Shown here piece by piece: positions 648 through 61,823 of a stretch of DNA of 64,000 nt. Position 1 is the first letter of the stretch; each line of letters opens with the position of its first letter. Origin of the DNA: Desulfobulbaceae bacterium (lineage in GTDB: Bacteria > Desulfobacterota > Desulfobulbia > Desulfobulbales > Desulfobulbaceae); assembly GCA_015484845.1 (NCBI GenBank), contig WFUT01000074.1:19388-83387 (forward strand), in the 5' to 3' direction. The notes under the pieces were generated by a model. The model saw only the letters and a list, made by a program, of their open reading frames with translations. It did no database searches and had not been told where the DNA came from. The position numbers and the translations under genes are program-made.

Positions 648-1253
648 TCTTAGCTCTTCCCCCGTGGCGCTGCCGTAGAGGGCTGTTGTACGTGTTGTGG
701 GTGCATTTCCTTCTCCTGGATGCGGTTCCATCCTGCAGTCCTGCAATCCATCCCCTTTCGGAGGTGGCACGGGAAACAGGGAGCAGGAGACAGGATGGTC
801 CTCTCCCGCGGTTCAGGCAGAGACTCGGACTGTCATCTCCGCCTGTGCCCGCTTTGCGGGCCATGCTGATCATCGGGATTTCCGGGCCGGCCAACCATGC
901 CGTCGCTGCAGTGATGTTGTTTGCCGGCAACAAACCTTCAATATTTACCATTTACAGGGAAAACAGGCGACTAAAAAATGCCATAAATTATAACTAATGA
1001 ATATATCATGATTAATGATCCGTGGCGTCCTTCCGGAAATGGCTGCCTGCACCCGGGGGGCGGGCCGGATGATAATCGGATGACGCGGATCAAGCCACGG
1101 GGGAACAACGGCAGCAGGCAGGGGAATTCTCCCGGAAGAGGGGAGAGACAGGGGCGTTGGCGGGAGTGCCTGGCCGGTACTGGTCGCGCAAACAGAGGGG
1201 GCCTTGCCTCGCCTGGCACAGTTGTTGATTCCGGGACCTTGATGACAGGAAAG

Positions 1254-2045
1254 TCAGTGAACCAGCAACACGGAGGCCTGGGAACTGGCCAGGGTCGCCA
1301 TGCGCCTGCTTTTGCTGGCCGGCAGCGTCGAGGCGACCAGGGCATAGTCCTTGAGGTAGTTGCCAACCTGTTCCGGGGTGCCGGCGGCGGTGACGGACTT
1401 GACCGCGGATTTGCCGGCAGCAAGAAGCCGTGAGTGCACCTCCCTGAGCGTGGCGTCATCCTCGCCGGCAGGCCGGATCTCCAGCTGACCCTTTTCCTTG
1501 TACCTGAAGCTGATAAGGTCAAACCGAAAACCGGAGTTACCCAGGATCTTCATGCTCTGCCTGACGAGTTGTTCCGGGTCGACACCATCGGCACAGAGCA
1601 GGGCGCATTTCTTGGAGATGGAGAGGTTTTTCACAAGCAGGACAGGACAGGGAGCCTGGGTATAGAGCGGCGAGGAGATACGCTTGTAAAACCGGTCCGG
1701 CTCGGCGGTGTTCAGGTATCCCTCGATATAGAACTGGTAGGAACCGCTCCGCAGTTCATAGGTGATCTCCTCGATACGGTTGCCGATAAAGATCTTTGGC
1801 CGACCGGCCAGGGGACAGTCGATATTCTCCGTGCGCAGCATGCGGTACACGGTCCTTCGTCCCCGTGCGCCTGCACCTTCTTCCCAGGTCTTCTGCAACG
1901 GTTCGCCGGCCCGCTCCTGCTCCCCGGCCTGTTCCACGTGGATAACAAAGAGGGAGAGGGGGATAAACTTGTTCAGGTATCCCGTGAATCGCAGGGCAAT
2001 ACTGGAGGCCAGGTTTTCATCGATGTAGAGTAATGTCTTCAGCAT
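1254..2045 (-). CDS. Universal stress protein (USP)-like protein, tandem domains
   Basis: MLKTLLYIDENLASSIALRF N-terminus, APCPVLLVK at the end of domain 1 and ASVLLVH C-terminus. Start moved to ATG 2045 (AAGGTGG upstream). Confidence 0.65.
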   Translation of the reverse strand: MLKTLLYIDENLASSIALRFTGYLNKFIPLSLFVIHVEQAGEQERAGEPLQKTWEEGAGARGRRTVYRMLRTENIDCPLAGRPKIFIGNRIEEITYELRSGSYQFYIEGYLNTAEPDRFYKRISSPLYTQAPCPVLLVKNLSISKKCALLCADGVDPEQLVRQSMKILGNSGFRFDLISFRYKEKGQLEIRPAGEDDATLREVHSRLLAAGKSAVKSVTAAGTPEQVGNYLKDYALVASTLPASKSRRMATLASSQASVLLVH

Positions 2046-47765: not shown

Positions 47766-48089
47766 GCCGGAAAAAGATTTCCATTCCGTGATTCTCCTTG
47801 ACAAGCAGGGGAAAATATCGCATTAGGTCAACCGCCGCCAGCCATGGTCGCGGCCCGACCGCCAGGTCAGGCCCCCATGACCGACGACAATGACCCTGCC
47901 GGCACACCACCGGAAGGTCATTCTCGTGGGCATTCCCCCACGGATCTCCACGGCCATGCCGCCGTGGTCAACGGCCCCGGATCCAAACCATCCCAGCAGG
48001 CCAGCAAGAGATGTTTACACCGCCCGGTTCCGGCCATCCGGCCATCCGGAACCGTGTCGTCTCGTCTTTTTTTGGGACAACGGAGTGAT

Positions 48090-50042
48090 ATGGAAACCTT
48101 TTTCCTGGCAATCTCGTTCATCATCGCCGCGGGGGTCCTGCCCTTTCTCTTCCTGCGCAGTTCCAGGCTCATGAGAGGATCGGCCGTCATCATGACCGCG
48201 GCCGGCGGCCTCACCGGCCTCCTCTTCGCGGCCCGGGCCATGACCACCGCCACGCCGCCCGCTGCCACCTTCCTCCTCCCGGGCGGGCTCCGGGTTCTCA
48301 TGCAGGTGGACGCGGTCTCGGCCTTCTTCCTGCTGCCCATATTCCTGGTCGCCCCGGTTGCCGCCCTGTACAGTTTCCATTACACCAGGGCGCAGGGCCC
48401 GCGCGCCGCGGCAGGCTATCTCTTCTTTTCCCTCCTCACCGCCGCCATGGCCGCGGTCGTCTGCGCCGCCGACATCACCGGCTTCATCATCGCCTGGGAA
48501 CTGATGTCGATCTCGTCCTTCTTTCTCGTGATACACGATTTCGGCAAAAAGGAGAGCCGCCGGGCCGGCTACATCTACCTTCTCTTTGCCCAGGCCGGGG
48601 CCATGGTCATCTTCGCCACCTTTGCCCTCGCCTACGGCAAAAGCGGCTCCCTCGATTTTGCCTCCTTTGCAACCATGCCCGCGCAGGCCCGGATCCTCGT
48701 CTTTGTGCTCGCCTTCATCGGCTTCGGCTCCAAGGCGGGCATCATTCCCCTGCACACCTGGCTCCCCCATGCCCATCCCGCGGCCGAGAGCCATGTCTCC
48801 GCCCTGATGAGCGGAGTGATGATAAAGATGGGGATATACGGCATGGTCCGCTTCTACGCCATACTCCGGCCGCCGGGTCCGGGTTGCGCAATGCTGCTGA
48901 TCCTCACCGGCGCCGTGACCGGGGTTCTCGGCGTGGTCCTCGCCCTGGGCCAGCACGACCTGAAGCGACTGCTCGCCTATCACAGCGTGGAGAACATCGG
49001 TATCATCGTCCTCGGCCTGGGAATCGGCATGCTCGGCGCAGCCACCGGCCATCCGCTGATGGCCCTCCTGGGCTTTGCCGGCGGCCTGCTCCATGTCCTC
49101 AACCACGCCCTGTTCAAGTCCCTGCTCTTCATGGGCGCAGGCAGCGTGCAGCGGGGCGCCGCCACCCTGAACATCGAGCAACTCGGCGGCCTGATGAAGA
49201 GGATGCCGCTCTCCGGCACCTGCTTCCTGGCCGGGAGCCTGGCGATCTGCGGCCTGCCGCCGTTCAACGGTTTTGTCAGTGAATTTCTCGTCTACAGCGG
49301 CGGGTTCCAGGGAGTGGCAAACAGCGAGGCGCAGATGTTTACCGCCCTGGCAGCGGTGATCTCGCTGGCAGTGATCGGTGGCCTGGCCGTGGCCTGCTTT
49401 ACCAAGGTGGTGGGCGTGGTCTTTCTTGGCGAGCCCAGGAGCGAGAAGGCAAAAATAGCGCCCCCCGCGGGCCGCTGCATGCAGGCGGCAATGGTTCTTC
49501 TCGCCGTCGCCTGCCTTGGTATCGGCCTGGGAGCCCCCTGGTTCATCGCCCTTGCCCGCAGGGCGGCAGGGCCACTTCTTGCAACGCCGACGCCCATGCC
49601 CGCGCCGCTGGACACCGCCGCGTACGCGATTGCCCTTGCGGCCGCCGGTTTCCTGCTCCTGCTTGCCATCCTCGCCGCTGGCCGCGGTCTGCTTGCCCAC
49701 GGCCGGCCGGCCGAATCCGCCACCTGGGGCTGCGGCTTCTCCAGCCCGACGCCGAGAATGCAGTACACCGGTTCTTCCTTTGCCGCCGAGATTGTCGGTT
49801 TCTACCGTCCTTTTGTGATCATCCGCAGGGATTTTTCAGGAATCCACGGCCTGTTTCCACCCCTGTCCTCTTTCAGGAGCCACACAATAGACCTTGTCGA
49901 GCTGGGGATAAGGCGGTGGCTGGCCCGCTCGGTCATGGCCCTGACCGGAAAGATACGCTGGCTGCAGCACGGTCACATCCAGCTCTACATCGCCTACATC
50001 TTCTTCGCCATGCTCGGGCTCCTGCTCTGGCTGATGGTATAG
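48090..50042 (+). CDS. ehrA: Ehr/Hyf complex antiporter-like membrane subunit (HyfB-like)
   Basis: AWELMSISSF, GFGSKAGIIPLHTWLPHAHPAAESHVSALMSG, LKRLLAYHSVEN and CGLPPFNGFVSE. Start ATG 48090. Confidence 0.9.
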   Translation: METFFLAISFIIAAGVLPFLFLRSSRLMRGSAVIMTAAGGLTGLLFAARAMTTATPPAATFLLPGGLRVLMQVDAVSAFFLLPIFLVAPVAALYSFHYTRAQGPRAAAGYLFFSLLTAAMAAVVCAADITGFIIAWELMSISSFFLVIHDFGKKESRRAGYIYLLFAQAGAMVIFATFALAYGKSGSLDFASFATMPAQARILVFVLAFIGFGSKAGIIPLHTWLPHAHPAAESHVSALMSGVMIKMGIYGMVRFYAILRPPGPGCAMLLILTGAVTGVLGVVLALGQHDLKRLLAYHSVENIGIIVLGLGIGMLGAATGHPLMALLGFAGGLLHVLNHALFKSLLFMGAGSVQRGAATLNIEQLGGLMKRMPLSGTCFLAGSLAICGLPPFNGFVSEFLVYSGGFQGVANSEAQMFTALAAVISLAVIGGLAVACFTKVVGVVFLGEPRSEKAKIAPPAGRCMQAAMVLLAVACLGIGLGAPWFIALARRAAGPLLATPTPMPAPLDTAAYAIALAAAGFLLLLAILAAGRGLLAHGRPAESATWGCGFSSPTPRMQYTGSSFAAEIVGFYRPFVIIRRDFSGIHGLFPPLSSFRSHTIDLVELGIRRWLARSVMALTGKIRWLQHGHIQLYIAYIFFAMLGLLLWLMV

Positions 50043-50052
50043 GGAGGCAGCA

Positions 50053-50961
50053 ATGCTCAAATCCACACTGATCATGCTCGCGGCCATGGCCGCCGCGCCG
50101 GTGCTGGCGGCCATCACCGGCCGGGTCAAGGCCTGGTTGGCCGGCCGCCGGGGACCGGACTGGACCCTCAACTACGCCACCCTGGCCAAGCTGCTCAGGA
50201 AGACACCGGTCTACAGCCGCTCGACCACCTACGTCTTCCGCCTGGGACCGCTGGTGGGCCTGGCGACCATCCTTGCCGCCCTGGCCTTCCTTCCCATTGC
50301 CGGCCGGCCACCCATCTTCTCCTTTGCCGGAGACGTTGTCTTTGTCTTCTACCTCCTCGGCCTGGGCCGTTTTTTCGTGGTGGCCGCGGCCCTGGACACG
50401 GCCTCTCCCTTCGAGGGCATGGGCGCGGCCCGGGAGGCACTGTTCGGGACACTGGCCGAGGCCACTGTCTTCATGGTCCTCTTTCTTCTCCAGCAGACCC
50501 ATGGCGGCATGAGCCTTGCCACCTACCTCGCCGCCACAACGGCAGGCCCGGGCATGAACGGGGCCGCCCTCGTCCTTGCGGTCATTGCCCTGTTCATGAT
50601 CCTGCTCACCGAGAACTCCCGGGTGCCCGTGGACGATCCGACCACTCACCTCGAGCTCACCATGATCCACGAGGTCATGATCCTGGACCACTCGGGCCCG
50701 GACCTTGCCATGATCGAGATGGGCGGCTGGCTGAAGCTCCTCTTCTATGCCACCTTCATCGCCGACATCGCCTGCCCGTTTCGCGGTGGCCCAGGAGACT
50801 ATCTCCTCTACATCCTTGCCCTGCTTGTCATCTATGGCGGCATCGGCCTGGTCGAATCGATCACCGCCCGTTTCAGGATGAGCCTGGTGCCCAAGTTCAT
50901 CCTCACCTCGTTCGCCCTTGCCTTTTTCGCCCTGATATTCACCATGGAGATGCCGGGATGA
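50053..50961 (+). CDS. ehrB: Ehr/Hyf complex NuoH-like subunit (HyfC-like)
   Basis: GRRGP, FEGMGAARE, ENSRVPVDDPTTHLELTMIHEVMILDHSG. Confidence 0.9.
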   Translation: MLKSTLIMLAAMAAAPVLAAITGRVKAWLAGRRGPDWTLNYATLAKLLRKTPVYSRSTTYVFRLGPLVGLATILAALAFLPIAGRPPIFSFAGDVVFVFYLLGLGRFFVVAAALDTASPFEGMGAAREALFGTLAEATVFMVLFLLQQTHGGMSLATYLAATTAGPGMNGAALVLAVIALFMILLTENSRVPVDDPTTHLELTMIHEVMILDHSGPDLAMIEMGGWLKLLFYATFIADIACPFRGGPGDYLLYILALLVIYGGIGLVESITARFRMSLVPKFILTSFALAFFALIFTMEMPG

Positions 50962-51608
50962 GCCACTGCGCCGATATCTGTCTTGCCCTGATCTTTCTCT
51001 CCGTCCTCCTGGGGATGGCAGCCAACCGCCTGATGGAGCTGGTCAAGATCATGGCCTTCCAGGGGACCATCGTCTCCATCCTCCCTGTCCTGCTCGAGGC
51101 CGGACAGCGGGACGCCGCCGGCCTCGGCTTCATGGCGGTGATGCTGACGGTGAAGGGCCTGGTCATGCCCCTGGCCCTTTATGCCGCGATCAAGAAAGTG
51201 GCCAACCTTCGCGAGGTGGAGCCCTTTGTCGGCTACCGTGCCTCGATCTTCAGCGCCCTGGCCCTGGTGCTTGCCGCCGGGTTCATCGACCGGACGCTGG
51301 CCCCCTTCATGCCGCCGACCCACGTGATGCTCATGCCTGCCAGCATCGCCACCATCGGCGCTGGTTTTTTCCTGATGATGGCACGGCGCAAGGCCATCAC
51401 CCAGGTCATCGGCTACCTGATGCTGGAGAACGGTATCTACCTCACCGGTATCGCCCTTGCCGGCGAAACCCACTCCCAGCGGTTACTCGAGTTCGGCGTA
51501 CTGCTCGATCTCCTTGCCGGTGTAATGATAATGGGGATAATCATCAACCGAATCAACCAGACCTTTGACGACGTCGATACCGGCATGCTCGGAAGCCTCA
51601 GGGATTGA
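50958..51608 (+). CDS. ehrC: Ehr/Hyf complex HyfE-like membrane subunit
   Basis: QVIGYLMLENGIY and EFGVLLDL; ATGA overlap. Confidence 0.88.
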   Translation: MSHCADICLALIFLSVLLGMAANRLMELVKIMAFQGTIVSILPVLLEAGQRDAAGLGFMAVMLTVKGLVMPLALYAAIKKVANLREVEPFVGYRASIFSALALVLAAGFIDRTLAPFMPPTHVMLMPASIATIGAGFFLMMARRKAITQVIGYLMLENGIYLTGIALAGETHSQRLLEFGVLLDLLAGVMIMGIIINRINQTFDDVDTGMLGSLRD

Positions 51609-51639
51609 CGCCGCAGCCAGGCACAACGGAAACAACAAC

Positions 51640-53070
51640 ATGCTCGAATCAGTGATCTTCATCCCGCTGCTGGCCGGCCTTGCCGCCTTCTTCCTGCCGC
51701 CACGGCCAGGCAGGGCGCTGCTGGTAGCAGCCGGTCTCCTTCACGCGGCCGCGGTGACCGCGATCCTCTGCGGCGCGGGCAACGCCCTCTGGCCGCAGTA
51801 CTTCTCCGTCACCGCCATGGGTGCGCTGGTCCTGGCCCTGACCTCGTTCCTGTACCTGATGACGGCCATCTACGCCGTCTCCTACATGGCAACCGTGGAG
51901 CTGCACGCCGAACCGGCATGCAACGGCGCCATGCTCCTCTTTCTCGCGGCCATGAGCATGGCCGCCATCGCCGACCACGTAATCGTGCTGTGGATCGCCA
52001 TCGAGGCCACCACCCTCACCTCGGCACCGCTCATCCTTCTGCACCGTTCCAAGGGGGCCCTCGAGGCGGCATGGAAATACGTCCTCATCTGCTCGGTGGG
52101 CATTGCCCTGGCCCTGCTCTCGGCCTTTTTCCTGGTCCTGGCCATGAACCTCGGCCGGGTGCACACCGCCCTGGGATATACGGCCCTGACCCGGGCCGCG
52201 CGCAGCCTCGATCCCGTCTGGCTGAAGGCCGCCTTTATCTTCTCCCTGATCGGCTATGGCACCAAGATGGGGCTGGCCCCCATGCACACCTGGCTGCCGG
52301 ATGCCCACAGCGAAGCGGTCAGCCCGGCCTCGGCCCTCCTCTCCGGCGCCCTGCTGAACTGCGCCTTCCTCGGGATATACAAGGGCCACGCCCTCCTGAC
52401 CGCGGCCGGGCTCGGTGACTTTTCCGGCCGGATCATGATCTTCTTCGGCCTGGCCTCGATCATCGTCGCCGGGGCCTTTATCATGCACCAGAACGACTAC
52501 AAGCGGATGCTGGCCTACTCGAGCATCGAGAACATGGGGATCATAGCCTTTGGCAGTGGCATCGGCGGACTTGCGGCCGCCGGCGCTGTCATCCACATGA
52601 TCCATCATTCCCTGGTCAAGTCGAGCCTGTTCCTTTCCTCCGGCAACATTCTCCTGGGATATGGCAGCAAGAAGATCAACGGGACCGGCCGGATGATGAC
52701 GAGACTTCCGGCGACCGCCACGGCATTCTTCGCCGGTTTCGCAGGCATATCAGGGATGCCGCCCTTTGGCCTGGTGGTGAGCGAGATCCTCATCACCGCG
52801 GGCGCCATGCGGGCCGGCCGGCCGATTGCGGCCGCGATCTTCCTTGCCGGCCTGCTCCTGGTCTTCAGCGGCGCAAGCCGCCATCTCATCCGCATGACCT
52901 TTGGCCCGGGCCACGGCGGAGAACTGCTGGTGGAAGAGAACACGCTCAGGGTCCTGCCCTCCTATGTCCTGCTCGCCGCGTCCATTACACTGACCTTCTG
53001 GATGCCCGGCATCATGACCGGCATCGTCAACCAGGCCGCAACCCTGATCGGAGGTGGATTCCATGGCTGA
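51640..53070 (+). CDS. ehrD: Ehr/Hyf complex antiporter-like subunit (HyfF-like)
   Basis: WIAIEATTL, EAAWKY, GYGTKMGLAPMHTWLPDAHSEA and KRMLAYSSIENMG. Start ATG 51640. Confidence 0.9.
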   Translation: MLESVIFIPLLAGLAAFFLPPRPGRALLVAAGLLHAAAVTAILCGAGNALWPQYFSVTAMGALVLALTSFLYLMTAIYAVSYMATVELHAEPACNGAMLLFLAAMSMAAIADHVIVLWIAIEATTLTSAPLILLHRSKGALEAAWKYVLICSVGIALALLSAFFLVLAMNLGRVHTALGYTALTRAARSLDPVWLKAAFIFSLIGYGTKMGLAPMHTWLPDAHSEAVSPASALLSGALLNCAFLGIYKGHALLTAAGLGDFSGRIMIFFGLASIIVAGAFIMHQNDYKRMLAYSSIENMGIIAFGSGIGGLAAAGAVIHMIHHSLVKSSLFLSSGNILLGYGSKKINGTGRMMTRLPATATAFFAGFAGISGMPPFGLVVSEILITAGAMRAGRPIAAAIFLAGLLLVFSGASRHLIRMTFGPGHGGELLVEENTLRVLPSYVLLAASITLTFWMPGIMTGIVNQAATLIGGGFHG

Positions 53071-54568
53071 TTTCATTGCGGTGCACAACGGCCGGCCCGT
53101 GGCCATGGCGGCAGTTCCGCTCCTGGACTTTTCCTCTTTCCGCGAGCGCCTGCTGGAACTGTGCCGTTTCGGCTGCGTGGTGCAGTACTTCGCCCTGGCC
53201 ACCGAACAGGGATTGTGTGCCGTTGCGGTGATCCGCCTCGAGGACCAGCTCCTCGCCGGTCGTGCCCTGCTGCCGCAACAGTTTCCTTCCCTGACCCGGG
53301 AACGGCCCCGCTTCCACATGTTCGAACGGGAGATGGCCGAGCAGTACGGTGTGCTCCCCCAGGGACACCCCTGGCTCAAGCCCCTGCGCTACCACTGCAA
53401 CTGGCGGGGCGTGGATGACGTGTTCGGCAACGACTACAACGAGGACATTCCCGGCCGCTATCCCTGGTACCGGGTGGAGGGCGACGAGATCCACGAGGTG
53501 GCGGTGGGGCCGGTGCACGCCGGGATCATTGAACCGGGCCATTTCCGCTTCCAGTGCAACGGCGAGACCGTCCTCCACCTGGAGATCGGCCACGGCTACC
53601 AGCACCGGGGCGTGGAACCACTGCTCTGCAGGGTCCCGGAGAAACGGCGACCATTCATCGCCGAGGCGGTTGCCGGTGACACCGGCATGGCCGGCAGTCT
53701 GTCGTACGCCCAGGCGGTGGAAGGCCTGGCCGGACTCGAGGTCGGCACAGGGGCACAGGCGGTCCGCACCATCGCGGTGGAACTGGAGCGCCTCGCCAAC
53801 CACGTCGGCGACCTCGGCGCCCTGGCCGGCGACGTGGCCTTTACCCCGCCGGCCGCGTTTTTCGGCCGCATGCGGGGAGAGTTCCTCAACCTCCTTCTCC
53901 TGCTCTCGGGCAACCGGTTCGGCCGCGGCCTCATCCGGCCGGGGGGAATCGCCTTTCCCGTCGATGTTGCGGCACTGGCCGCCATCGCCGCCAAGGTGCA
54001 GGAACTGAGGCTGGAACTGGTCCGCTGCGTGGACCTGCTCCTGTCAGCCCACACGGTACTGTCGCGGTTCGAGAACTGCGGCATCGTGTCCAGGGAGGCG
54101 GCCGAATGCCTGGGCATGGTGGGACCGGCAGGAAGGGCGTCGTGGATGGCCTATGACGCGCGAATCCACTTTCCAACCGAACGATACCCCGACCTCCCGG
54201 CCGCAAGGATGGAACGGCCCACCGGCGATGTCCTTGCCCGGGCAAGGGTCAGGGCCGGCGAGATCATGCACAGCCTCGACTGTGTCGAGATCCTGGCCCG
54301 GGAAGGGCAAGACGTCGCGGCCACGGAGAACCGGGTCCCCGGGCTTGCCCCCGATTCAATGGTGGTCACTGTCAACGAGGCATGGCGGGGGGAGCTGTCC
54401 CATTGCCTGGTCACCGGCCCCGGCGGGGAGATCATCCGCTACAAGATCAAGGATCCGTCCTTCCACAACTGGGCCGGGCTGGCCATGGCCCTCCGGGACG
54501 AGGGGATCAGTGATTTCCCGGTCAACAACAAGAGCTTCAACCTTTCCTACTGCGGGATGGACCTCTGA
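53063..54568 (+). CDS. ehrL: Ehr large subunit (NuoC/NuoD-like, HyfG homologue lacking NiFe ligands)
   Basis: NuoC-like FERE...HPWLKP, VGPVHAGIIEPGHFRF, GYQHRGVE and EAWRGE, KIKDPSF. No RxCxxC, and the C-terminus is DFPVNNKSFNLSYCGMDL rather than DPCxxC. Confidence 0.9.
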   Translation: MADFIAVHNGRPVAMAAVPLLDFSSFRERLLELCRFGCVVQYFALATEQGLCAVAVIRLEDQLLAGRALLPQQFPSLTRERPRFHMFEREMAEQYGVLPQGHPWLKPLRYHCNWRGVDDVFGNDYNEDIPGRYPWYRVEGDEIHEVAVGPVHAGIIEPGHFRFQCNGETVLHLEIGHGYQHRGVEPLLCRVPEKRRPFIAEAVAGDTGMAGSLSYAQAVEGLAGLEVGTGAQAVRTIAVELERLANHVGDLGALAGDVAFTPPAAFFGRMRGEFLNLLLLLSGNRFGRGLIRPGGIAFPVDVAALAAIAAKVQELRLELVRCVDLLLSAHTVLSRFENCGIVSREAAECLGMVGPAGRASWMAYDARIHFPTERYPDLPAARMERPTGDVLARARVRAGEIMHSLDCVEILAREGQDVAATENRVPGLAPDSMVVTVNEAWRGELSHCLVTGPGGEIIRYKIKDPSFHNWAGLAMALRDEGISDFPVNNKSFNLSYCGMDL

Positions 54569-54581
54569 GACGGAGGCACTG

Positions 54582-55328
54582 ATGCTGAAGGTACTGCGAA
54601 CCAGGCTGGAACAGGGATACAGGACAATGCGCTGGCCGCGCCAGGAGCTGGTGCTTCCCGCCCCCTACAGGGGCCGGCCGATGATAAACCGCGACTGTGA
54701 CCCCGAGACGGTCCGCGCCTGCGCCCGGGCCTGTCCCCAGGACGCCATCGACGCGGACCGCAAAAGCGTGGACATGGGCAGGTGCCTCTTCTGCGGGACC
54801 TGCGCCCGGATATCGAAGGAGAGATTTGTCCGTTTTACCAGGGACTTTGACCTGGGCAGCGCCAGCCGGTCCGGCCTTGTCTGCGACGGCGGCGACCCGG
54901 CCGGGCTCGCCGACCATGCAAAAGAACATTTCCGGAAGCTGTTCGGCCGTTCCCTGCAGCTGCGGCAGGTGTCAGCCGGCGGCTGCAACGCCTGCGAGGC
55001 CGAGATCAATGTCCTCGCCACCCCGGCATACGATCTTTCCCGTTTCGGGATCAGCTACGTCGCCTCACCCCGGCATGCCGACGGTATCCACGTCACCGGC
55101 CCGGTAACCCGCAACATGCGCGCCGCTCTCCTTGCCACCTTCGAGGCTGTGCCGGAACCAAGGGTCGTGATCGCCTCCGGGGCCTGCGCCATATCCGGGG
55201 GACCGTTCACCGGCAGCCCGGAGGTCTGCCAGGGCCTGGACACGATCCTGCCCGTGGACCTCTATATTCCCGGCTGCCCGCCCCATCCCATGACCACCCT
55301 CAAGGCCCTGCTGGATTTTTTCAGGTAA
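54582..55328 (+). CDS. ehrS: Ehr small subunit (NuoB-like) fused to an N-terminal ferredoxin domain
   Basis: CLFCGTC ferredoxin motif, then GGCNACEAE, SPRHADG, GACA and PGCPPHP. Start ATG 54582 with a GGAGG RBS. Confidence 0.9.
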   Translation: MLKVLRTRLEQGYRTMRWPRQELVLPAPYRGRPMINRDCDPETVRACARACPQDAIDADRKSVDMGRCLFCGTCARISKERFVRFTRDFDLGSASRSGLVCDGGDPAGLADHAKEHFRKLFGRSLQLRQVSAGGCNACEAEINVLATPAYDLSRFGISYVASPRHADGIHVTGPVTRNMRAALLATFEAVPEPRVVIASGACAISGGPFTGSPEVCQGLDTILPVDLYIPGCPPHPMTTLKALLDFFR

Positions 55329-55355: not shown

Positions 55356-55967
55356 TCAGGCGGCCTGTTGCCGGAGCCTGGCCAGGATCCAGTCCACTGC
55401 CGCGGCCAGGTCCTCTGCCACCAGGGCGGGCTGCAGTTGCTTTGCCGGGCCGATGTAGGCATGGTCTCCCCGGCCGTAGCCGGTCAGGACCAGGATGGGG
55501 GTCGCGCCGACCCGGGCGCCGCATTCCAGGTCCGACCAGCGGTCGCCGACCATGAAGGAACGTGCCAGGTCGAGATCCATCTCCCGGGCAGCCTGTTCCA
55601 GGAGGCCGGTGCCGGGCTTGCGGCAGTCACAGCGCACGCGGTAGCGCTCCTCCTTTGCCTCGGGATGGTGCGGGCAGACGTAGAGACCGTCGATGCGGGC
55701 GCCTTCTGCCGCGAGCTGCGCCTGCATCAGTTGGTGGACCTGGTCCAGGAGGCTGGCGGGAAAATAGCCGCGGGCCAGGCCGGACTGGTTGGTGACCACG
55801 ACCACGGGAATGTTGTGCTCGTTGAGCCGGCGGATGGCGGCGCCAACCCCGGCCAGGAGATGGAACCGGCTGACGTGGTTGATGTAGCCCATCTGCTCGT
55901 TGATGGTGCCATCGCGGTCAAGAAAGACGGCCGGCCGTTTTGCCGACTGCCGCGGGGCCGGGCTCAC
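55356..55967 (-). CDS. gmhB: D-glycero-D-manno-heptose 1,7-bisphosphate phosphatase
   Basis: AVFLDRDGTI, VVTNQSG, CPHHP...CDCRKP and MVGDRWSD. GTG 55967 overlaps the waaF stop. Confidence 0.93.
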   Translation of the reverse strand: MSPAPRQSAKRPAVFLDRDGTINEQMGYINHVSRFHLLAGVGAAIRRLNEHNIPVVVVTNQSGLARGYFPASLLDQVHQLMQAQLAAEGARIDGLYVCPHHPEAKEERYRVRCDCRKPGTGLLEQAAREMDLDLARSFMVGDRWSDLECGARVGATPILVLTGYGRGDHAYIGPAKQLQPALVAEDLAAAVDWILARLRQQAA

Positions 55968-57031
55968 GAGACCGTCTCCAGGAGAAGGTAGGGCTCCATG
56001 GCCGCCAGCACCTGGTCGGCCGTCACCTGTTCCATGCACTGGAAGTGGCCCTGCGGGCAGTGGGTCTTCATGCAGGGACTGCACGGCATGGCGTGGCGGA
56101 CAACGGCGGCCCGTTCGCTGTAGGGACCGGTGGCCACATGGTCGGTGGAGCCGAAGATGGCCACCAGGGGCACGTCCAGGGCCGCGGCCGCGTGCATGAG
56201 ACCGGAATCATTGGTAACAAAGACGTCGCAGAGGTCGATGAAGGCCAGGGCCAGGGCCAGGTCGGTCCGGCCGGTCAGGTCGAGGATACGCTGCGGGTGC
56301 GGGCAATAGTCCCGGATCTGGCCGGCCGCCCGGCGGTCGGCATCGGTGCCAAAGACCAGGACCAGGCCGTCAAGGCGGTCGGTGAGCAGCCGGGCCAGCT
56401 CGCCGAAGCGGCGCGCCGGCCAGCGCTTGGCCGGACCATAGGAGGCGCCGGGGTTGAGGCCGATGACCGGGCCGCGCACGTCCTGCTCCCGGCGGAACCG
56501 CTCCAGCGTCTGCCGGGCGTGCTCCTCCGCGGCCGGGGCAAGATACAGCTCCAGTCGGTCCGGCCCGGGCCGCAGTCCCAGGCCGGCCAGCATCTCCTGG
56601 TAGTAATGGACCTGGTGCCGGCTGCCGATATCCGGCGCCTTGCGCACGCCGTGGGTCAGCAGCAGGCCCCGGCCGTCGGTGGTGTAACCGGCCCGGACCG
56701 GGATCCGGGCCAGGCTGGTGACCAGGGCCGCCTCAAAGGCGTTCTGCAGCAGGATGGCGGCGTCGAACCCGCGGCCGGCCATCTCCTGCACCAGGCGCAG
56801 GCGGCCGCGCATACCGTGGTGACGCCCCTGTTTCTCATAGAGCAGCAGCCGGTCCACCCAGGGGGAATGGCGGAAGATATCCGCCACCCAGGGCAGGGCC
56901 AGCAGGGTGATCTCGGCAGCGGGAAAATTCCGGCGGATGGTGCGCACCGCCGGAATGGTCATCACCGCGTCGCCGATCCAGTTGGTGGAACGGACCAGGA
57001 TCCGTTCCGGTTGGGCGGGAAACGGCTTCAT
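55964..57031 (-). CDS. waaF: Lipopolysaccharide heptosyltransferase II
   Basis: NWIGDAVM, NPGASYGPAKRWP, TDLALA, TNDSGLMH and AIFGST. Start ATG 57031. Confidence 0.92.
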   Translation of the reverse strand: MKPFPAQPERILVRSTNWIGDAVMTIPAVRTIRRNFPAAEITLLALPWVADIFRHSPWVDRLLLYEKQGRHHGMRGRLRLVQEMAGRGFDAAILLQNAFEAALVTSLARIPVRAGYTTDGRGLLLTHGVRKAPDIGSRHQVHYYQEMLAGLGLRPGPDRLELYLAPAAEEHARQTLERFRREQDVRGPVIGLNPGASYGPAKRWPARRFGELARLLTDRLDGLVLVFGTDADRRAAGQIRDYCPHPQRILDLTGRTDLALALAFIDLCDVFVTNDSGLMHAAAALDVPLVAIFGSTDHVATGPYSERAAVVRHAMPCSPCMKTHCPQGHFQCMEQVTADQVLAAMEPYLLLETVS

Positions 57032-57038
57032 GGCCCGG

Positions 57039-58793
57039 CTACTCGGCCTCCTGGCAGGCCAGCAGCTCGGCCAGCCCCTTGCGGGCAAACTCGATGGAGG
57101 GATCCTGGGACAGGGCGATGTGGTAGTTGGTGATCGCCTCATCGGTCCGGCCCAGTTTTTCCAGGTTCAGGGCCAGGTTGGCATAGTCGATGGCCGAGAC
57201 CGGGTTGAGCTCCACGGCCCGCCTGAAGTGATGGACCGCGGTCTCGTAGTTCTCGCACTTGAAGTGGCAGACCCCGAGGATGTTGTGGATATCGGGCCGC
57301 TCCTCGTCGCAGGCCAGGCCGGTGTCCAGGGTGGTGATGGCCTCCCTGAACCGCTGCAGGTCGCGCAGGCAGCTGCCCATGTAGGAATAGATATAGGGCA
57401 GATCCTCCTGGCTGGGATTGCGGGCCAGGGCCTGTTCGAACCGTTGCAGGGCCTCCTCTGCCATGCCCTGCTCGTAGAGGTTCTTGCCCCGGTAGAACTC
57501 CAGGTAATAGGCATTGTCGATCCTGGCCTCCATGGCGGCGAGCTTGTCTTCCAGGGCCGCCGGCTCCAGGAGCTCGGTGGCCAGCTTGGCCGCGAACAGG
57601 GCCGCATCGCCGCCGGCTGCCCGCTCCCGGAAGTGGGCCCCGGGCACGATGGTATAGACGGCCGGGATCTGGAGCCTGGGGTGCATGGTGTTGAGGATCA
57701 GCACCTCCATGTTCAGCCTGCGCAGCGAGTCAACACAGTTGAGCACCTCGCGCCGCATGTCCGGGTCGCCCACGTTGACCATCTCGTCCAGGGCAATGGT
57801 CTGCTCCGGCCTGACCACGTGCTCCACCTCGTCCAGGGAGAGGGGCTTGGGCAGGCCCGAGGCCACGTAGTTGGCCGAGGTATTGAAGTCGCCGGCCAGT
57901 TGCGCGATCTCGGTCAGGGCACGGATCAGGGCCTTGGTCGGATCGGGCGTGGTGCCGGCGGTATAGACGATCTCGCTGGTCTCGGGAAAGGTGGCGGGAT
58001 CCCAGGCCAGGGCGCCGACCGTGGGAATGCCGGTATCAAGGGAGAAATCGTTGAGGTAGAGCTCGATGCCGCAGCGCCGGAACTTGTCGATCAGGGTCCG
58101 CGCCACCGGGTCGGTGACCGAATCGGGATCAATGGCCGGGGTCTTGAGTTTCTCCCGGCTCACCACGGCGCAGACATGGCGTTCGACGATCTCGCAGATC
58201 CCCTGCAGGATCGCCTCCTCGTAGGTGTTACCGGCCGAGGGGCCGTTGAACTCGTTGATGGCGTAGAACCAGGAAAAGGGCACCAGGACGTCGCTGCCGC
58301 TGCTCAGGTTGGTAGCCCAGGTCCAGCGCATGGGCAGGCCGGAGAGCAGCTCCTCCAGGATCTCCGGGGCCAGGGTCGTATCATGGACCGACTGGAGCAG
58401 GAAACGGATATCCAGGACCGGGTAGCCGGCCTCCCGCATGGCGGCATAGTCACCAGTGACAAAGTTGTCCGGGTTCTTCATGAAACTGAAGAAACTGAAC
58501 CGCTCGCCCAGCTCCATGCAGGCACTGGCCCGGGACTGCTCCGGGGTCGAGCCCTTGCCCATCTGCTTCTTGGTGCCAATGGTGTTCAGGGCATCCTGGC
58601 CGCAGACCGAGAAATAGACCGGAATATCCAGCCTGCCGGTGTCGATGCGCCGCACCTCCTTGAGGATGTCGAGATCGGCCTCCCTGAGCCGCTGCATGAA
58701 CCGCGCAACGGTCTCCTCGGGGGTGCAGGCCTTGTCCTGGTCATAGGTATATGCCTTGCGGCAGTCAGCAAGTCGAATCGTTTTCTTTTCCAT
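57039..58793 (-). CDS. YcaO-family protein with C-terminal TPR repeats
   Basis: KQMGKG...SACMELGER, NGPSAGNTYEEAILQGICEIVER and YTIVPG, followed by four TPR-like 34-mers. Confidence 0.9.
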   Translation of the reverse strand: MEKKTIRLADCRKAYTYDQDKACTPEETVARFMQRLREADLDILKEVRRIDTGRLDIPVYFSVCGQDALNTIGTKKQMGKGSTPEQSRASACMELGERFSFFSFMKNPDNFVTGDYAAMREAGYPVLDIRFLLQSVHDTTLAPEILEELLSGLPMRWTWATNLSSGSDVLVPFSWFYAINEFNGPSAGNTYEEAILQGICEIVERHVCAVVSREKLKTPAIDPDSVTDPVARTLIDKFRRCGIELYLNDFSLDTGIPTVGALAWDPATFPETSEIVYTAGTTPDPTKALIRALTEIAQLAGDFNTSANYVASGLPKPLSLDEVEHVVRPEQTIALDEMVNVGDPDMRREVLNCVDSLRRLNMEVLILNTMHPRLQIPAVYTIVPGAHFRERAAGGDAALFAAKLATELLEPAALEDKLAAMEARIDNAYYLEFYRGKNLYEQGMAEEALQRFEQALARNPSQEDLPYIYSYMGSCLRDLQRFREAITTLDTGLACDEERPDIHNILGVCHFKCENYETAVHHFRRAVELNPVSAIDYANLALNLEKLGRTDEAITNYHIALSQDPSIEFARKGLAELLACQEAE

Positions 58794-58907
58794 GGTGTTG
58801 TCGTGTAATGAGTGTGTTGTTGGTTGGTTTCTTGATCCTGGCGGCGGCCCGGGGACAAAACCTCGCCCGCCCGCGGCGGACCCGGGTGCCCCGCTGCCGT
58901 GCCCGGT

Positions 58908-60122
58908 TCAGATGGCGCTGAAATTCTCGGCCAGGTCAACGGCGTCCAGATAGGCTGCCATCATCCGGTCGGTATCCATGCCGATATCCTCGAGCAGCGC
59001 CGTACACCGCTGCCAGTCACCCTGCTCGTAGGCGAGCACGGTCTCCAGGTAGGGCGCGCAGGGGCCGGTGCCGTGGGTCAGCGCCTGCTTGATATTGGCC
59101 GGCAGGGGCAGCCGCTCCATCAGCTCCGCCATCTCCATGTCCAGCATGGCATCGAGCAGGGAGAAGAGTCCCAGCAGGAAGAGCTCCGACGTATCGCCCT
59201 GCCTTCCCCGGCCATGTTTTCCCAGCAGCTCGCAGAGCCTGGCCCGGATCACCGCGGTCCGGATCAGCTCGTCGGGCTTGTCCGACGACAGGCCGGAGGT
59301 GGCCACCAGGGAGACGAACTGCCGCACCCCGGCCTCACCGAGATAGAGGAGCGCATGCCGGATCGAGGAGATCTCGTTGAGCAGGTAGTAGTAGGCCGAG
59401 TTGATGTAGCGCAGCAGCTTGTAGGAGATGGCCACGTCCGGGGAGATCATCTGCTCGATCCGGTCCATGCGCACGTTTTCCCGGTTGACCTCCACCAGGA
59501 GGTTGAGCAGGTTGACCTTGGAGGTGGCGATCTCGCGGTTGTGCATGACCTCCGGCCTGCTGAAAAAGTAGCCCTGGAACAGGGAAAACCCCATGGCCAG
59601 CGCCGCGTCGAACTCCTGGTAGGTCTCTATCTTCTCGGCCAGGAGCTTCTTGCCCTGCTCCCGCAACGCGGCACCTTCCCGCTCGATCACCTCCAGGGGA
59701 ACCAGGCGGAAATCGACCTTGATGATGTCGGCCAGCTCCACCAGGGCCGCCTGGTTGCCGCTGAAGTCAAAGTCGTCCAGGGCGATGAGATACCCGTTTT
59801 CCCTGAGCTGCCTGCAGGCGGTGACGATCTCGGCTGTTGGCTCGACATCCTCGAGGATCTCGACAATGACCTTGTCGGCCGGAAACTGGGTCGGCGTCCT
59901 GTCGAGCAGGTGCCTGCCGGTGAAGTTGATCAGGGCCCACTTGGAGCCGGTGATCCTGTCCATGCCGATATTGAGAAAGGTCGAGCTCAGGACCCGGGCC
60001 GTGGCCATGTCGCCGTCGGCACCGGAAAAGACATTTTCCAGGCTGCTGCGGTACAGGAGCTCGTAGCCGAACAGGCCTTTCCTGCGGTTGAATATCGGTT
60101 GCCGGGCAATAAAGCTGTCCAT
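58908..60122 (-). CDS. EAL plus HDOD domain protein (YuxH/PdeH-like c-di-GMP phosphodiesterase)
   Basis: FIARQPIF, GYELLYR, INFT, VEILE, ALDDF, IKVD, LAEKIET and FQGYFF, then HDOD (SYKLLRYINS, LFLLGLFSLLDA). Start ATG 60122. Confidence 0.92.
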   Translation of the reverse strand: MDSFIARQPIFNRRKGLFGYELLYRSSLENVFSGADGDMATARVLSSTFLNIGMDRITGSKWALINFTGRHLLDRTPTQFPADKVIVEILEDVEPTAEIVTACRQLRENGYLIALDDFDFSGNQAALVELADIIKVDFRLVPLEVIEREGAALREQGKKLLAEKIETYQEFDAALAMGFSLFQGYFFSRPEVMHNREIATSKVNLLNLLVEVNRENVRMDRIEQMISPDVAISYKLLRYINSAYYYLLNEISSIRHALLYLGEAGVRQFVSLVATSGLSSDKPDELIRTAVIRARLCELLGKHGRGRQGDTSELFLLGLFSLLDAMLDMEMAELMERLPLPANIKQALTHGTGPCAPYLETVLAYEQGDWQRCTALLEDIGMDTDRMMAAYLDAVDLAENFSAI

Positions 60123-60124
60123 GA

Positions 60125-60625
60125 TTAACGCCCCGGGCCGGAAGCCGACCCGGCCGTGGCCGCCAGTTGCGGCAGCCGCTGCCGCCAGGAGCGGCCGTGC
60201 GCGGTCAGGGTCACGGTCCTCCCCTCCCCGCCGCTGCTCCCGATCCTGATCTCCAGGAAGCTCTCCGGCCGCAACCCGCCCAGCCTGTCGGGCCACTCGA
60301 TGGCACAGACCCCTGCTCCTTCCAGGTATTCGGCCAGGCCGGCCGCCTCCACGTCCTCCTCTCCGGCCAGGCGGTAGCAGTCCATGTGGTAGAAGGGCAG
60401 CCGGCCGGGATACTCGTGCAGCAGGGCAAAACTGGGACTGGTGACATGGTACTGGTCCGGGACGCCGAGGCCGCGCGCGATCCAGCCGGCCAGGGTGGTC
60501 TTGCCCGCGCCCAGCTCGCCCGCCAGGAGAATGACGTCACCAGGCCCGCAGATGGCGCCAAGCCGCCGGCCCAGGCTCTCGGTCTGTGCGGGATCAGCCA
60601 GGGACAGGGTCAGGCTGTCAGCCAT
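60125..60625 (-). CDS. tsaE: tRNA threonylcarbamoyladenosine biosynthesis ATPase
   Basis: LAGELGAGKTT, VTSPSF, HMDCYRL and IEWPDR. Start ATG 60625. Confidence 0.95.
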   Translation of the reverse strand: MADSLTLSLADPAQTESLGRRLGAICGPGDVILLAGELGAGKTTLAGWIARGLGVPDQYHVTSPSFALLHEYPGRLPFYHMDCYRLAGEEDVEAAGLAEYLEGAGVCAIEWPDRLGGLRPESFLEIRIGSSGGEGRTVTLTAHGRSWRQRLPQLAATAGSASGPGR

Positions 60626-61823
60626 TGTCCGCTCCCCCGACGACAGGAACCGGCACGCGGCTGTCAACAGGCAGGGTGACCACCATGGACTCCCCGTCCC
60701 CGCTGGTGTCGAGATGCAGGGACCCGCCGAGCATGTTCACCAGTTCGCCCACCGTGACCATGGTATGATCCAGCGGTCTTGCTTCGTTTCCGGCCATGGC
60801 CTGCGCCCCGGCCCTGTCCGCCTTCATGGTCAGCACCATCTCCCCGTCCCTGGTGTCGAAGCGCACCTGCAGGCTGTCACCATTCCGCTGGCAGAATCCC
60901 TGCAACGCCTTCTGGACGATGCGATAGACCAGTTTCTTTTTCGGATGCAGGAAGAGCCGGTCCAGGGGAGTGGCCGCAAAGGCGATGTCCACCTTCCTCC
61001 TCCGGCTGAAACGGCGGACCAGTTCGGCAATGGCGGCATCCAGGCCCAGGTCGTCGATGCTCACCGGGCTCAGGCTCGAGGAGAGCAGCCGGATCTTGTC
61101 AATGATCTCGTTCAGGAATCCCCGCAACAGCTGCAGGTTGCCGTTGATCAGTTCCCTGGACAGCTCGCCGCCGCTGTTGATCTCGTTCTCCAGCAGCTTG
61201 ATCTGCAGCTTCAGGCCGGTCAGCGACTGGCCGAGATCCTCGCTCAGGCGGGTGGCAAGCTGTTCTTTTTCATCCTCCTGGCCGTTGATCAGGCTGGAGG
61301 AGAGGCTGGCCAGCCGCCGGTCGGAGCGGGCCAGCTCCTCGCTGGCCCGGCGCAGCCGGTTCTCGTACCTGCGCACCCTGTCGCAGAGGGTCCTGTTCTC
61401 CCTGGTCAGCAGCCAGGTCTGCCGGGCCTGGTCCAGGATGAGGCGTAACTGGACAATATCCCAGGGCTTGAGGACATACTGGTAGATATGTCCCTTGTTG
61501 ATGGCATCGATGATGTCCGAGACATCCATGTACCCCGTGATGATGATCCGGACCGTTTCCGGCTGCCGGGCATAGACCTCTGCCAGCAGCTCGACACCGG
61601 ACATGGAGCCCAGCTGCTGGTCGCAGAGGACCATGGCGATATCGGGACTGCCGGCAAAGATCTCCAGTGCCTCCTCGCCGCCGGCAGCGGTGAGGACCTG
61701 GTACTCCTCGCCGAAAGTGGCAACAAAATGTCCTGTATTGACCGGGTCAGGATCGACAAGCAGGATCTTCACCCTGCGTCCCGGCAACCGGCCGGCGTCA
61801 CGGCTCATATGCTGCTGTTCCAT
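60618..61823 (-). CDS. Response-regulator receiver fused to a degenerate NarX/UhpB-type (HisKA_3) kinase core
   Basis: Intact receiver (VLCDQQL, IITG, VLKPW). H-box reads LSEDLGQSLT instead of LHDELGQ, and the ATP-box residues are substituted. Start uncertain (61823 or 61808). Confidence 0.8.
   Translation of the reverse strand: MEQQHMSRDAGRLPGRRVKILLVDPDPVNTGHFVATFGEEYQVLTAAGGEEALEIFAGSPDIAMVLCDQQLGSMSGVELLAEVYARQPETVRIIITGYMDVSDIIDAINKGHIYQYVLKPWDIVQLRLILDQARQTWLLTRENRTLCDRVRRYENRLRRASEELARSDRRLASLSSSLINGQEDEKEQLATRLSEDLGQSLTGLKLQIKLLENEINSGGELSRELINGNLQLLRGFLNEIIDKIRLLSSSLSPVSIDDLGLDAAIAELVRRFSRRRKVDIAFAATPLDRLFLHPKKKLVYRIVQKALQGFCQRNGDSLQVRFDTRDGEMVLTMKADRAGAQAMAGNEARPLDHTMVTVGELVNMLGGSLHLDTSGDGESMVVTLPVDSRVPVPVVGGADNG

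Follow-up and report, generated by a model that had tools for sequence, protein, structure and literature searches.

A YcaO-TPR protein coupled to the Dsr system across a phylum, with DsrC as its possible substrate

The stretch of DNA analyzed here (the window) comprises 64,000 nucleotides (nt) of contig WFUT01000074.1, positions 19,388 to 83,387 of the forward strand, in the GenBank assembly GCA_015484845.1 of a Desulfobulbaceae bacterium. Its minus strand carries, in this order, genes for a solute-binding protein, a response regulator, TsaE, an EAL/HDOD protein, a protein that joins a YcaO domain to tetratricopeptide repeats (YcaO-TPR), a GT9 protein and a GmhB-like phosphatase. The YcaO-TPR gene (57039-58793, minus strand) is the subject of this work. 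It encodes the sole YcaO protein of the whole genome and adds another member to a known family whose biochemistry is unsolved, for which a role in the maturation of the sulfur carrier DsrC would be new. Across the phylum, genomic context and phyletic distribution couple this gene to dsrA, to dsrC and to a lysine-methyltransferase-like gene.

The open reading frame (ORF) of YcaO-TPR is uninterrupted over 584 codons. Its product belongs to the YcaO superfamily, with 260.9 bits against PF02624 (cut-off 25.7) and 127.4 bits against TIGR00702 (cut-off 75.65), and NCBIfam assigns it to the generic YcaO domain family only. The ATP-dependent amide-activating domain spans residues 78-386 (57636-58562; PF02624, E 2.4e-77) and is also recovered by Foldseek. 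As the preliminary description had reported, both ATP/Mg motifs are intact: SACMELGER (residues 90-98, 58500-58526), the acidic Mg/ATP site, and the ATP-binding motif SAGNTYEEAILQGICEIVER (residues 186-205, 58179-58238), an exact fit to the published YcaO motif Sx6-7Ex3Qx3ExxER. All acidic residues of the two motifs are invariant in an alignment of 34 homologues reaching down to 42% identity, in which E94, E97, R98, E192, E193, Q197, E201, E204 and R205 show no variation. From about residue 430 to the C-terminus the protein matches TPR_1 and TPR_2 of Pfam at E values of 1e-20 to 1e-22. An AlphaFold2 model built from the homologue alignment (predicted local distance difference test 92.1, predicted template-modeling score 0.88) folds residues 429-583 (57045-57509) into four helix pairs and a capping helix, that is, the four TPRs of the preliminary description. 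The catalytic core of YcaO-TPR is intact and is joined to a four-TPR array.

This full architecture is common to more than 6000 database proteins. The nearest relatives, at 70-95% identity, come from Desulfobulbaceae and cable bacteria, and named carriers span Desulfobulbales, Desulfobacterales, Desulfarculales and Desulfovibrio. Homologues from D. piger and other Desulfovibrio are 42-44% identical over residues 1-579, and this branch is annotated as "YcaO-like family protein". By its sequence, YcaO-TPR is a member of the DVU2210 family of stand-alone proteins of about 580 residues, in which a YcaO domain at the N-terminus is followed by TPRs at the C-terminus. DVU2210 of Desulfovibrio (Nitratidesulfovibrio) vulgaris Hildenborough has been reported as a "YcaO-like, TPR domain protein" with a molybdate phenotype and no known biochemical function (Zane, Wall and De Leon, 2020; PMC7774982), so that the family itself is not undescribed. 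The two proteins share architecture and length class, and both stand alone in a sulfate reducer. Their ATP motifs, SAGNTEEESILQGSCELVER in DVU2210 and SAGNTYEEAILQGICEIVER in YcaO-TPR, are near-identical; this published stretch of 20 residues is the only part of DVU2210 that entered our comparison. The Desulfovibrio gene differs from ours in being translationally coupled to a methyltransferase gene, whereas YcaO-TPR here precedes lipopolysaccharide (LPS) genes.

In D. vulgaris, deletion of DVU2210 or a Ser-to-Arg substitution in its ATP motif, when combined with deletion of sat, results in molybdate resistance; the DVU2210 single mutant respires sulfate normally, and expression of DVU2210 gave E. 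coli no molybdate sensitivity (PMC7774982). The substituted residue corresponds to the first Ser of SAGNTYEEAILQGICEIVER. These phenotypes could be taken to mean that the family consumes ATP on small oxyanions of the molybdate/sulfate type, in the futile cycle of Zane et al., and modifies no protein at all; a gene for a MOSC protein, which is molybdenum-cofactor-related, upstream of YcaO-TPR in Desulfobacterales would agree with this. We regard such an activity as very unlikely. Free oxyanions are not among the known substrates of any YcaO, E. coli was not sensitized by DVU2210, and the TPRs together with the dsrC and lysine-methyltransferase links described below point to a protein partner. 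Furthermore, the phenotype is also explained if molybdate intercepts an activated amide and uncouples ATP hydrolysis.

We followed the gene through an even sample of 301 genomes from one phylum. Full-length YcaO-TPR is present in 102 of them, 100 of which carry dsrA, and in only two of the 144 dsrA-negative genomes, one of these two being only 61% complete. A second gene follows the same pattern. It encodes a lysine-methyltransferase-like protein of about 235 residues (Methyltransf_16) and overlaps the start of YcaO-TPR by 4 nt at each of the four named Desulfovibrio loci as well as in seven of eight sampled Desulfovibrionaceae. Orthologues occur in 74 genomes, 71 of which are among the 102 YcaO-TPR carriers; among dsrA-positive genomes they occur in 70 of the 100 with YcaO-TPR and in none of the 57 without it. 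The nesting of the methyltransferase within YcaO-TPR carriers, and of these within dsrA carriers, is clean. Related genomes are not independent, and Fisher values computed on such counts overstate their significance. In one genome the methyltransferase gene lies 178 nt from dsrC. Apparent methyltransferase fusions of 590-810 residues in two families were discarded, because reading frames in this high-GC DNA stay open well beyond the actual genes, which have about 230 codons. The orthologue of the present genome (L083) lies on contig C123 (1411-2103, minus strand), directly upstream of a gene of the sirohaem-synthase type (658-1323, minus strand; NAD_binding_7 and Sirohm_synth_M). Sirohaem is the cofactor of DsrAB.

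We then fetched 100 neighborhoods of YcaO-TPR from this sample and clustered the flanking ORFs de novo. The sole widely shared neighbor is dsrC, found directly adjacent at 25 loci in 11 of 37 families. These are genuine dsrC genes, on the same strand as YcaO-TPR and with products 67-83% identical to DsrC of the present genome. They lie 94-243 nt downstream of YcaO-TPR in nine families and 138-173 nt upstream in another (8/8 genomes), and one Desulfarculales locus has the order methyltransferase-dsrC-YcaO-TPR. In one further family, a YcaO paralogue without TPRs, some 490 residues long, is encoded about 500 nt from dsrC. The preliminary description had read the genomic context as an LPS setting, which turned out to be uninformative (see below), and had missed the links to dsrC and to the lysine methyltransferase, visible in relatives and with both genes present in this genome.

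The TPR-less paralogue was seen downstream of dsrC in three genomes of that family (G198, G285 and G104, family f32); it is also the only YcaO of two genomes of family f41 whose DsrC has Ala89, and it does not occur in the genome of the window. Two other sulfur-related genes recur directly upstream of YcaO-TPR. One, in three families (f36, f72 and f42), encodes the sacrificial sulfur transferase LarE (TIGR00268, 307 bits) and stops 17-24 nt short of the start of YcaO-TPR (L110, L099 and relatives); a LarE homologue lies on contig C136 of the present genome. The other encodes a MOSC protein of 145 residues, at six Desulfotignum/Desulfobacter loci (L049, L051, L059, L066, L075 and L076). It matches the MOSC half of MoaC/MOSC fusions, stands behind an ECF sigma/anti-sigma pair, and is noteworthy in view of DVU2210's molybdate phenotype. 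The dsrC gene of the present genome (L082; contig C214, 1486-1803, plus strand) is met by a converging gene for a RimK-like ATP-grasp protein (PF08443; 1928-2692, minus strand). In six other families (f34, f21, f96, f65, f53 and f79), a homologue of this ATP-grasp gene is found about 2.2 kb beyond YcaO-TPR, past dsrC where the latter is adjacent; the ATP-grasp protein may be a further dsrC-linked protein-modifying enzyme.

The sequence of DsrC itself varies with the presence of YcaO-TPR. We compared 62 DsrC sequences from YcaO-TPR genomes with 54 from dsrA-positive genomes that lack it. The former read ...ELFPSGPG89KGACKM95AGLPKPTGCV, with Gly89 and Met95 in 62 of 62, whereas the latter have Ala89 (FPSGPAK) in 49 of 54 and Leu, Val or Ile at position 95 in 47 of 54; the region is otherwise invariant. 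Within family f41, the two genomes without YcaO-TPR have Ala89 and the members that carry the enzyme have Gly89. With these columns removed, a DsrC tree shows only two changes at residue 89; the enzyme is lost or absent on both occasions, and no change runs in the opposite sense. We tried this covariation as statistical proof and rejected it; the pattern is suggestive of what a Gly-specific modification site would leave behind.

Published proteomics bears on the same region. In three independent pull-downs from D. vulgaris, the DsrC peptide LK*EVYELFPSGPGK (residues 77-90) was recorded with "trimethylation + oxidation" (Chhabra et al., 2011; PMC3125180, Table 1), that is, with +42 Da and +16 Da on the same peptide; its residue numbers are those used here. 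This peptide contains no Met, Cys or Trp. The mass accuracy of that study was too low to separate oxidation (+15.995) from an exchange of oxygen for sulfur (+15.977), and ApsA and ApsB were trimethylated as well (PMC3125180). In our literature searches, no paper was found that mentions DsrC together with a thioamide, and none of the papers listed by the search on YcaO and DsrC mentions YcaO.

Characterized YcaO enzymes offer several precedents. The closest in overall layout is E. coli YcaO (EcYcaO; 586 residues), which thioamidates folded ribosomal uL16 at Met82 without TfuA; its C-terminal TPR domain of 150 residues mediates dimerization, short peptides are not substrates, and its sulfur donor in vivo is unknown, with primary metabolism as the expected source (Rice et al., 2026; PMC13063428). 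The same study notes that the YcaOs of high-sulfide organisms operate without TfuA. Like YcaO-TPR, EcYcaO (PDB 4Q84-4Q86) has about 585 residues, a YcaO domain followed by a TPR-type domain, and neither TfuA nor an RRE domain, and Foldseek aligns the two over about 620 columns with the C-terminal domain included. Therefore the combination of YcaO with C-terminal TPRs is not special to YcaO-TPR. The proposed action of YcaO-TPR resembles that of EcYcaO in having a folded protein as substrate. However, the two differ in sequence (E 1e-8), the EcYcaO model NF040716 scores only 57 (cut-off 700) and matches residues 162-298 alone, and the TPR motifs of YcaO-TPR are canonical and detectable by Pfam. 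The distribution of YcaO-TPR tracks dsrA and not the ribosome. Its isoelectric point (pI) is 4.84 (family median 5.03), ordinary for cytoplasmic proteins and not the marked acidity (about 4.4) by which the uL16-type EcYcaO complements basic uL16; we considered pI as a marker of the uL16 type and did not find it decisive.

In fold, YcaO-TPR is closest to the YcaOs of methanogens, which thioamidate a glycine of McrA. The top Foldseek hit is M. jannaschii YcaO (MJ1094, PDB 6PE3/6PEU; template-modeling score 0.77 on the target), followed by LynD, EcYcaO and M. kandleri YcaO (6CI7), and the methanogen enzymes score 0.75-0.77 on the target. TIGR03266 matches over its full length (E 2e-36) at 125.8 bits, far from the equivalog cut-off of 365. 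Methanogen YcaOs have no TPR domain and this genome has no McrA; the modification of a glycine and the independence of some methanogen YcaOs from TfuA in sulfidic hosts are features that our proposal for YcaO-TPR shares.

The YcaO core is just as similar to the cyanobactin heterocyclases LynD and TruD, comparable in fold and at the same sequence distance as MJ1094 (E about 1e-22 in each case). Taken with the presence of a SagB-type domain protein on contig C84, this could indicate that YcaO-TPR is a cyclodehydratase or amidine-former that matures a ribosomally made peptide with post-translational modifications (RiPP) whose precursor is encoded elsewhere. We consider such a role highly improbable. 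LynD and TruD, which lie in RiPP clusters, have an E1-like/RRE domain at the N-terminus and a C-terminus rich in Pro, whereas YcaO-TPR has none of these features; its C-terminus is the TPR array, and it reaches 101.5 bits against the azoline-forming TOMM/cyanobactin model TIGR03604, whose cut-off is 219.25. The preliminary description had found no TfuA or E1-like partner nearby, and this extends to the whole genome: in the assembly (3.38 Mb, 233 contigs), which is 97% complete, neither TfuA (PF07812) nor an E1-like cyclodehydratase partner (TIGR03603) has a match. Among 180 YcaO-TPR neighborhoods there is no conserved small ORF, protease or exporter. The gene is also single-copy, 42-95% conserved and vertically present family-wide, unlike a secondary-metabolite gene. 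The SagB-type protein (L293; C84, 1360-2634, plus strand; 424 residues, double nitroreductase-like) exceeds its cut-off only barely (79.6 bits, cut-off 78.4). Its gene lies between those of a universal stress protein and a radical-SAM protein, and neither a YcaO nor a peptide gene is nearby. We therefore rejected a RiPP partner set, there being no TfuA, no E1-like protein and no linked SagB-type gene; the dsrC and methyltransferase genes found elsewhere in the genome do not amount to one.

From these observations we consider it likely that YcaO-TPR, which we take to be a housekeeping-type, trans-acting enzyme, works with the Dsr system. It is a stand-alone YcaO of non-RiPP type, and a protein substrate is likely, both in line with the preliminary description. 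That the substrate is DsrC, and that YcaO-TPR modifies its backbone independently of TfuA, is our preferred reading, to which we assign a probability of roughly 0.45. Among the chemistries open to such an enzyme, TfuA-independent thioamidation, which the preliminary description had also held plausible, is the most plausible in view of the top fold match to the McrA-thioamidating YcaO of M. jannaschii, the lack of TfuA, the production of sulfide by the host, and the sulfur-transfer genes that neighbor YcaO-TPR in relatives. As the actual product, a thioamide on DsrC is a tentative proposal with the odds against it. The same holds for the fuller picture, which we offer as a possibility and would not bet on: that YcaO-TPR and the co-distributed methyltransferase form a DsrC-maturation system, through which the FPSGPGK hinge would gain a backbone thioamide at Gly89 or beside it and Lys78 of DsrC would become trimethylated.

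We infer substrate, site, chemistry and the role of the TPRs, and the mechanism would run as follows. YcaO-TPR would bind folded DsrC, with the TPR array serving dimerization, as in EcYcaO, and/or docking of DsrC. With ATP it would O-phosphorylate a single backbone amide of the conserved hinge L77-K-x-x-Y-E-L-F-P-S-G-P-G89-K90, which immediately precedes the swinging arm with Cys93 and Cys104. Sulfide, abundant in the host, or a persulfide or thiocarboxylate donor or carrier such as LarE or the MOSC protein could then displace the phosphate to give a thioamide (+15.977 Da), and TfuA would not be needed. The Methyltransf_16-type enzyme encoded elsewhere in the genome would probably contribute to this maturation by trimethylating a lysine of DsrC nearby. 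Molybdate, by intercepting the activated amide and uncoupling ATP hydrolysis, may cause the molybdate toxicity observed in D. vulgaris lacking sat.

Several observations weigh against DsrC as the substrate or against its thioamidation. To our knowledge, the native DsrAB-DsrC structures (2V4J, 2XSJ, 3OR1/3OR2) carry no annotated thioamide or trimethyl-lysine. The +16 Da shift was assigned as oxidation by its authors (PMC3125180). About a third of the dsrA-positive genomes (57) lack YcaO-TPR and the DVU2210 deletion mutant respires sulfate normally, so any modification must be dispensable. In the present genome dsrC, the methyltransferase gene and YcaO-TPR are all unlinked, the first two lying on C214 and C123. 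Five genomes without YcaO-TPR retain Gly89, one of them only 66% complete, and the independent-pairs sign test on Gly89/Ala89 has two concordant events (p = 0.5). YcaO-TPR also falls far under the cut-offs of both known protein-thioamidating YcaO families. Finally, the sulfur-transfer neighbors (DsrC, LarE and MOSC) fit DsrC as a sulfur donor equally well as DsrC as the recipient.

This last point is the core of an explanation in which YcaO-TPR thioamidates another protein, be it uL16 or DsrAB/AprAB, and DsrC (as a TusE-like persulfide carrier), LarE or MOSC supplies the sulfur. The recurrent neighbors are all sulfur-transfer proteins, the layout is that of EcYcaO, whose donor is likewise expected from primary metabolism, and ApsA and ApsB are trimethylated in D. 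vulgaris too. We judge this unlikely, since a ribosomal substrate would leave the restriction to dsrA-positive genomes unexplained, the NF040716 score is not that of the EcYcaO type, the pI is ordinary though not decisive, and it is in DsrC, away from the donor cysteine, that the site-specific pattern at Gly89 and the peptide with +16 Da are both located.

Should DsrC prove to be thioamidated by YcaO-TPR, it would carry the third known protein-backbone thioamide after those of McrA and uL16, and on a central sulfur carrier. A thioamide and a methyl-lysine at the hinge of the swinging arm would constitute a new layer of control over dissimilatory sulfate reduction, and a large orphan YcaO family would gain a function. 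A mechanism would also be at hand for the second, unexplained target of molybdate, with which sulfate reducers are routinely inhibited. In both microbial sulfate reduction and the oxidation of sulfur, DsrC is the pivotal sulfur carrier, and these processes shape the cycling of sulfur and carbon worldwide, corrosion, and sulfide in the gut.

The immediate surroundings of the gene tell a more local story. The stop codon of YcaO-TPR ends at 57039 and the in-frame ATG of the next gene, a member of the GT9 heptosyltransferase family (55964-57031, minus strand), lies at 57031, which leaves a gap of 7 nt; the longest possible GT9 ORF would begin at 57142, within YcaO-TPR. The GT9 gene, probably co-transcribed with YcaO-TPR, overlaps through GTGA with the gene of a GmhB-like HAD phosphatase (55356-55967, minus strand), recorded here as context. 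A terminator-like hairpin picked up by a consensus scan (58865-58881, minus strand) sits in the 114-nt gap 5' of YcaO-TPR, between it and the EAL/HDOD gene; YcaO-TPR therefore appears to head its own unit and is probably the first gene of a three-gene transcript with GT9 and the GmhB-like phosphatase. Where the preliminary description had placed YcaO-TPR 7 nt before waaF in an LPS-core operon, the distance is correct and the neighbor was identified at the level of the GT9 family; the operon reduces to the GT9 and phosphatase genes and has no family-wide meaning.

An envelope- or LPS-related function of YcaO-TPR would draw on this tight spacing and overlap, and on the order tsaE-YcaO-GT9-gmhB being kept in six of six sampled genomes of the window's family and at about 20 Desulfobulbaceae loci. 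However, 80 named and 100 evenly sampled loci gave no instance of this arrangement in the two remaining families of the same taxonomic order, in Electronema or in other lineages, the other 36 enzyme-carrying families included. As the gene order is confined to Desulfobulbaceae, we rejected the LPS link as functional evidence, do not judge GT9 part of the YcaO-TPR system, and hold an LPS-related function to be most improbable. Likewise, tsaE (60125-60667, minus strand), recorded here as context, is conserved as an upstream neighbor within Desulfobulbaceae only.

Between tsaE and YcaO-TPR lies the gene of the EAL and HDOD protein (58908-60122, minus strand), which looks degenerate and is shared by the closest relatives only, with 52-87% identity at three loci. 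On the other side, a six-gene operon for a membrane-bound [NiFe] hydrogenase of the Hyf/Ech type (47844-55328, plus strand) converges on gmhB; it encodes subunits that resemble antiporters, together with a large subunit like HycE and a small one like HycG.

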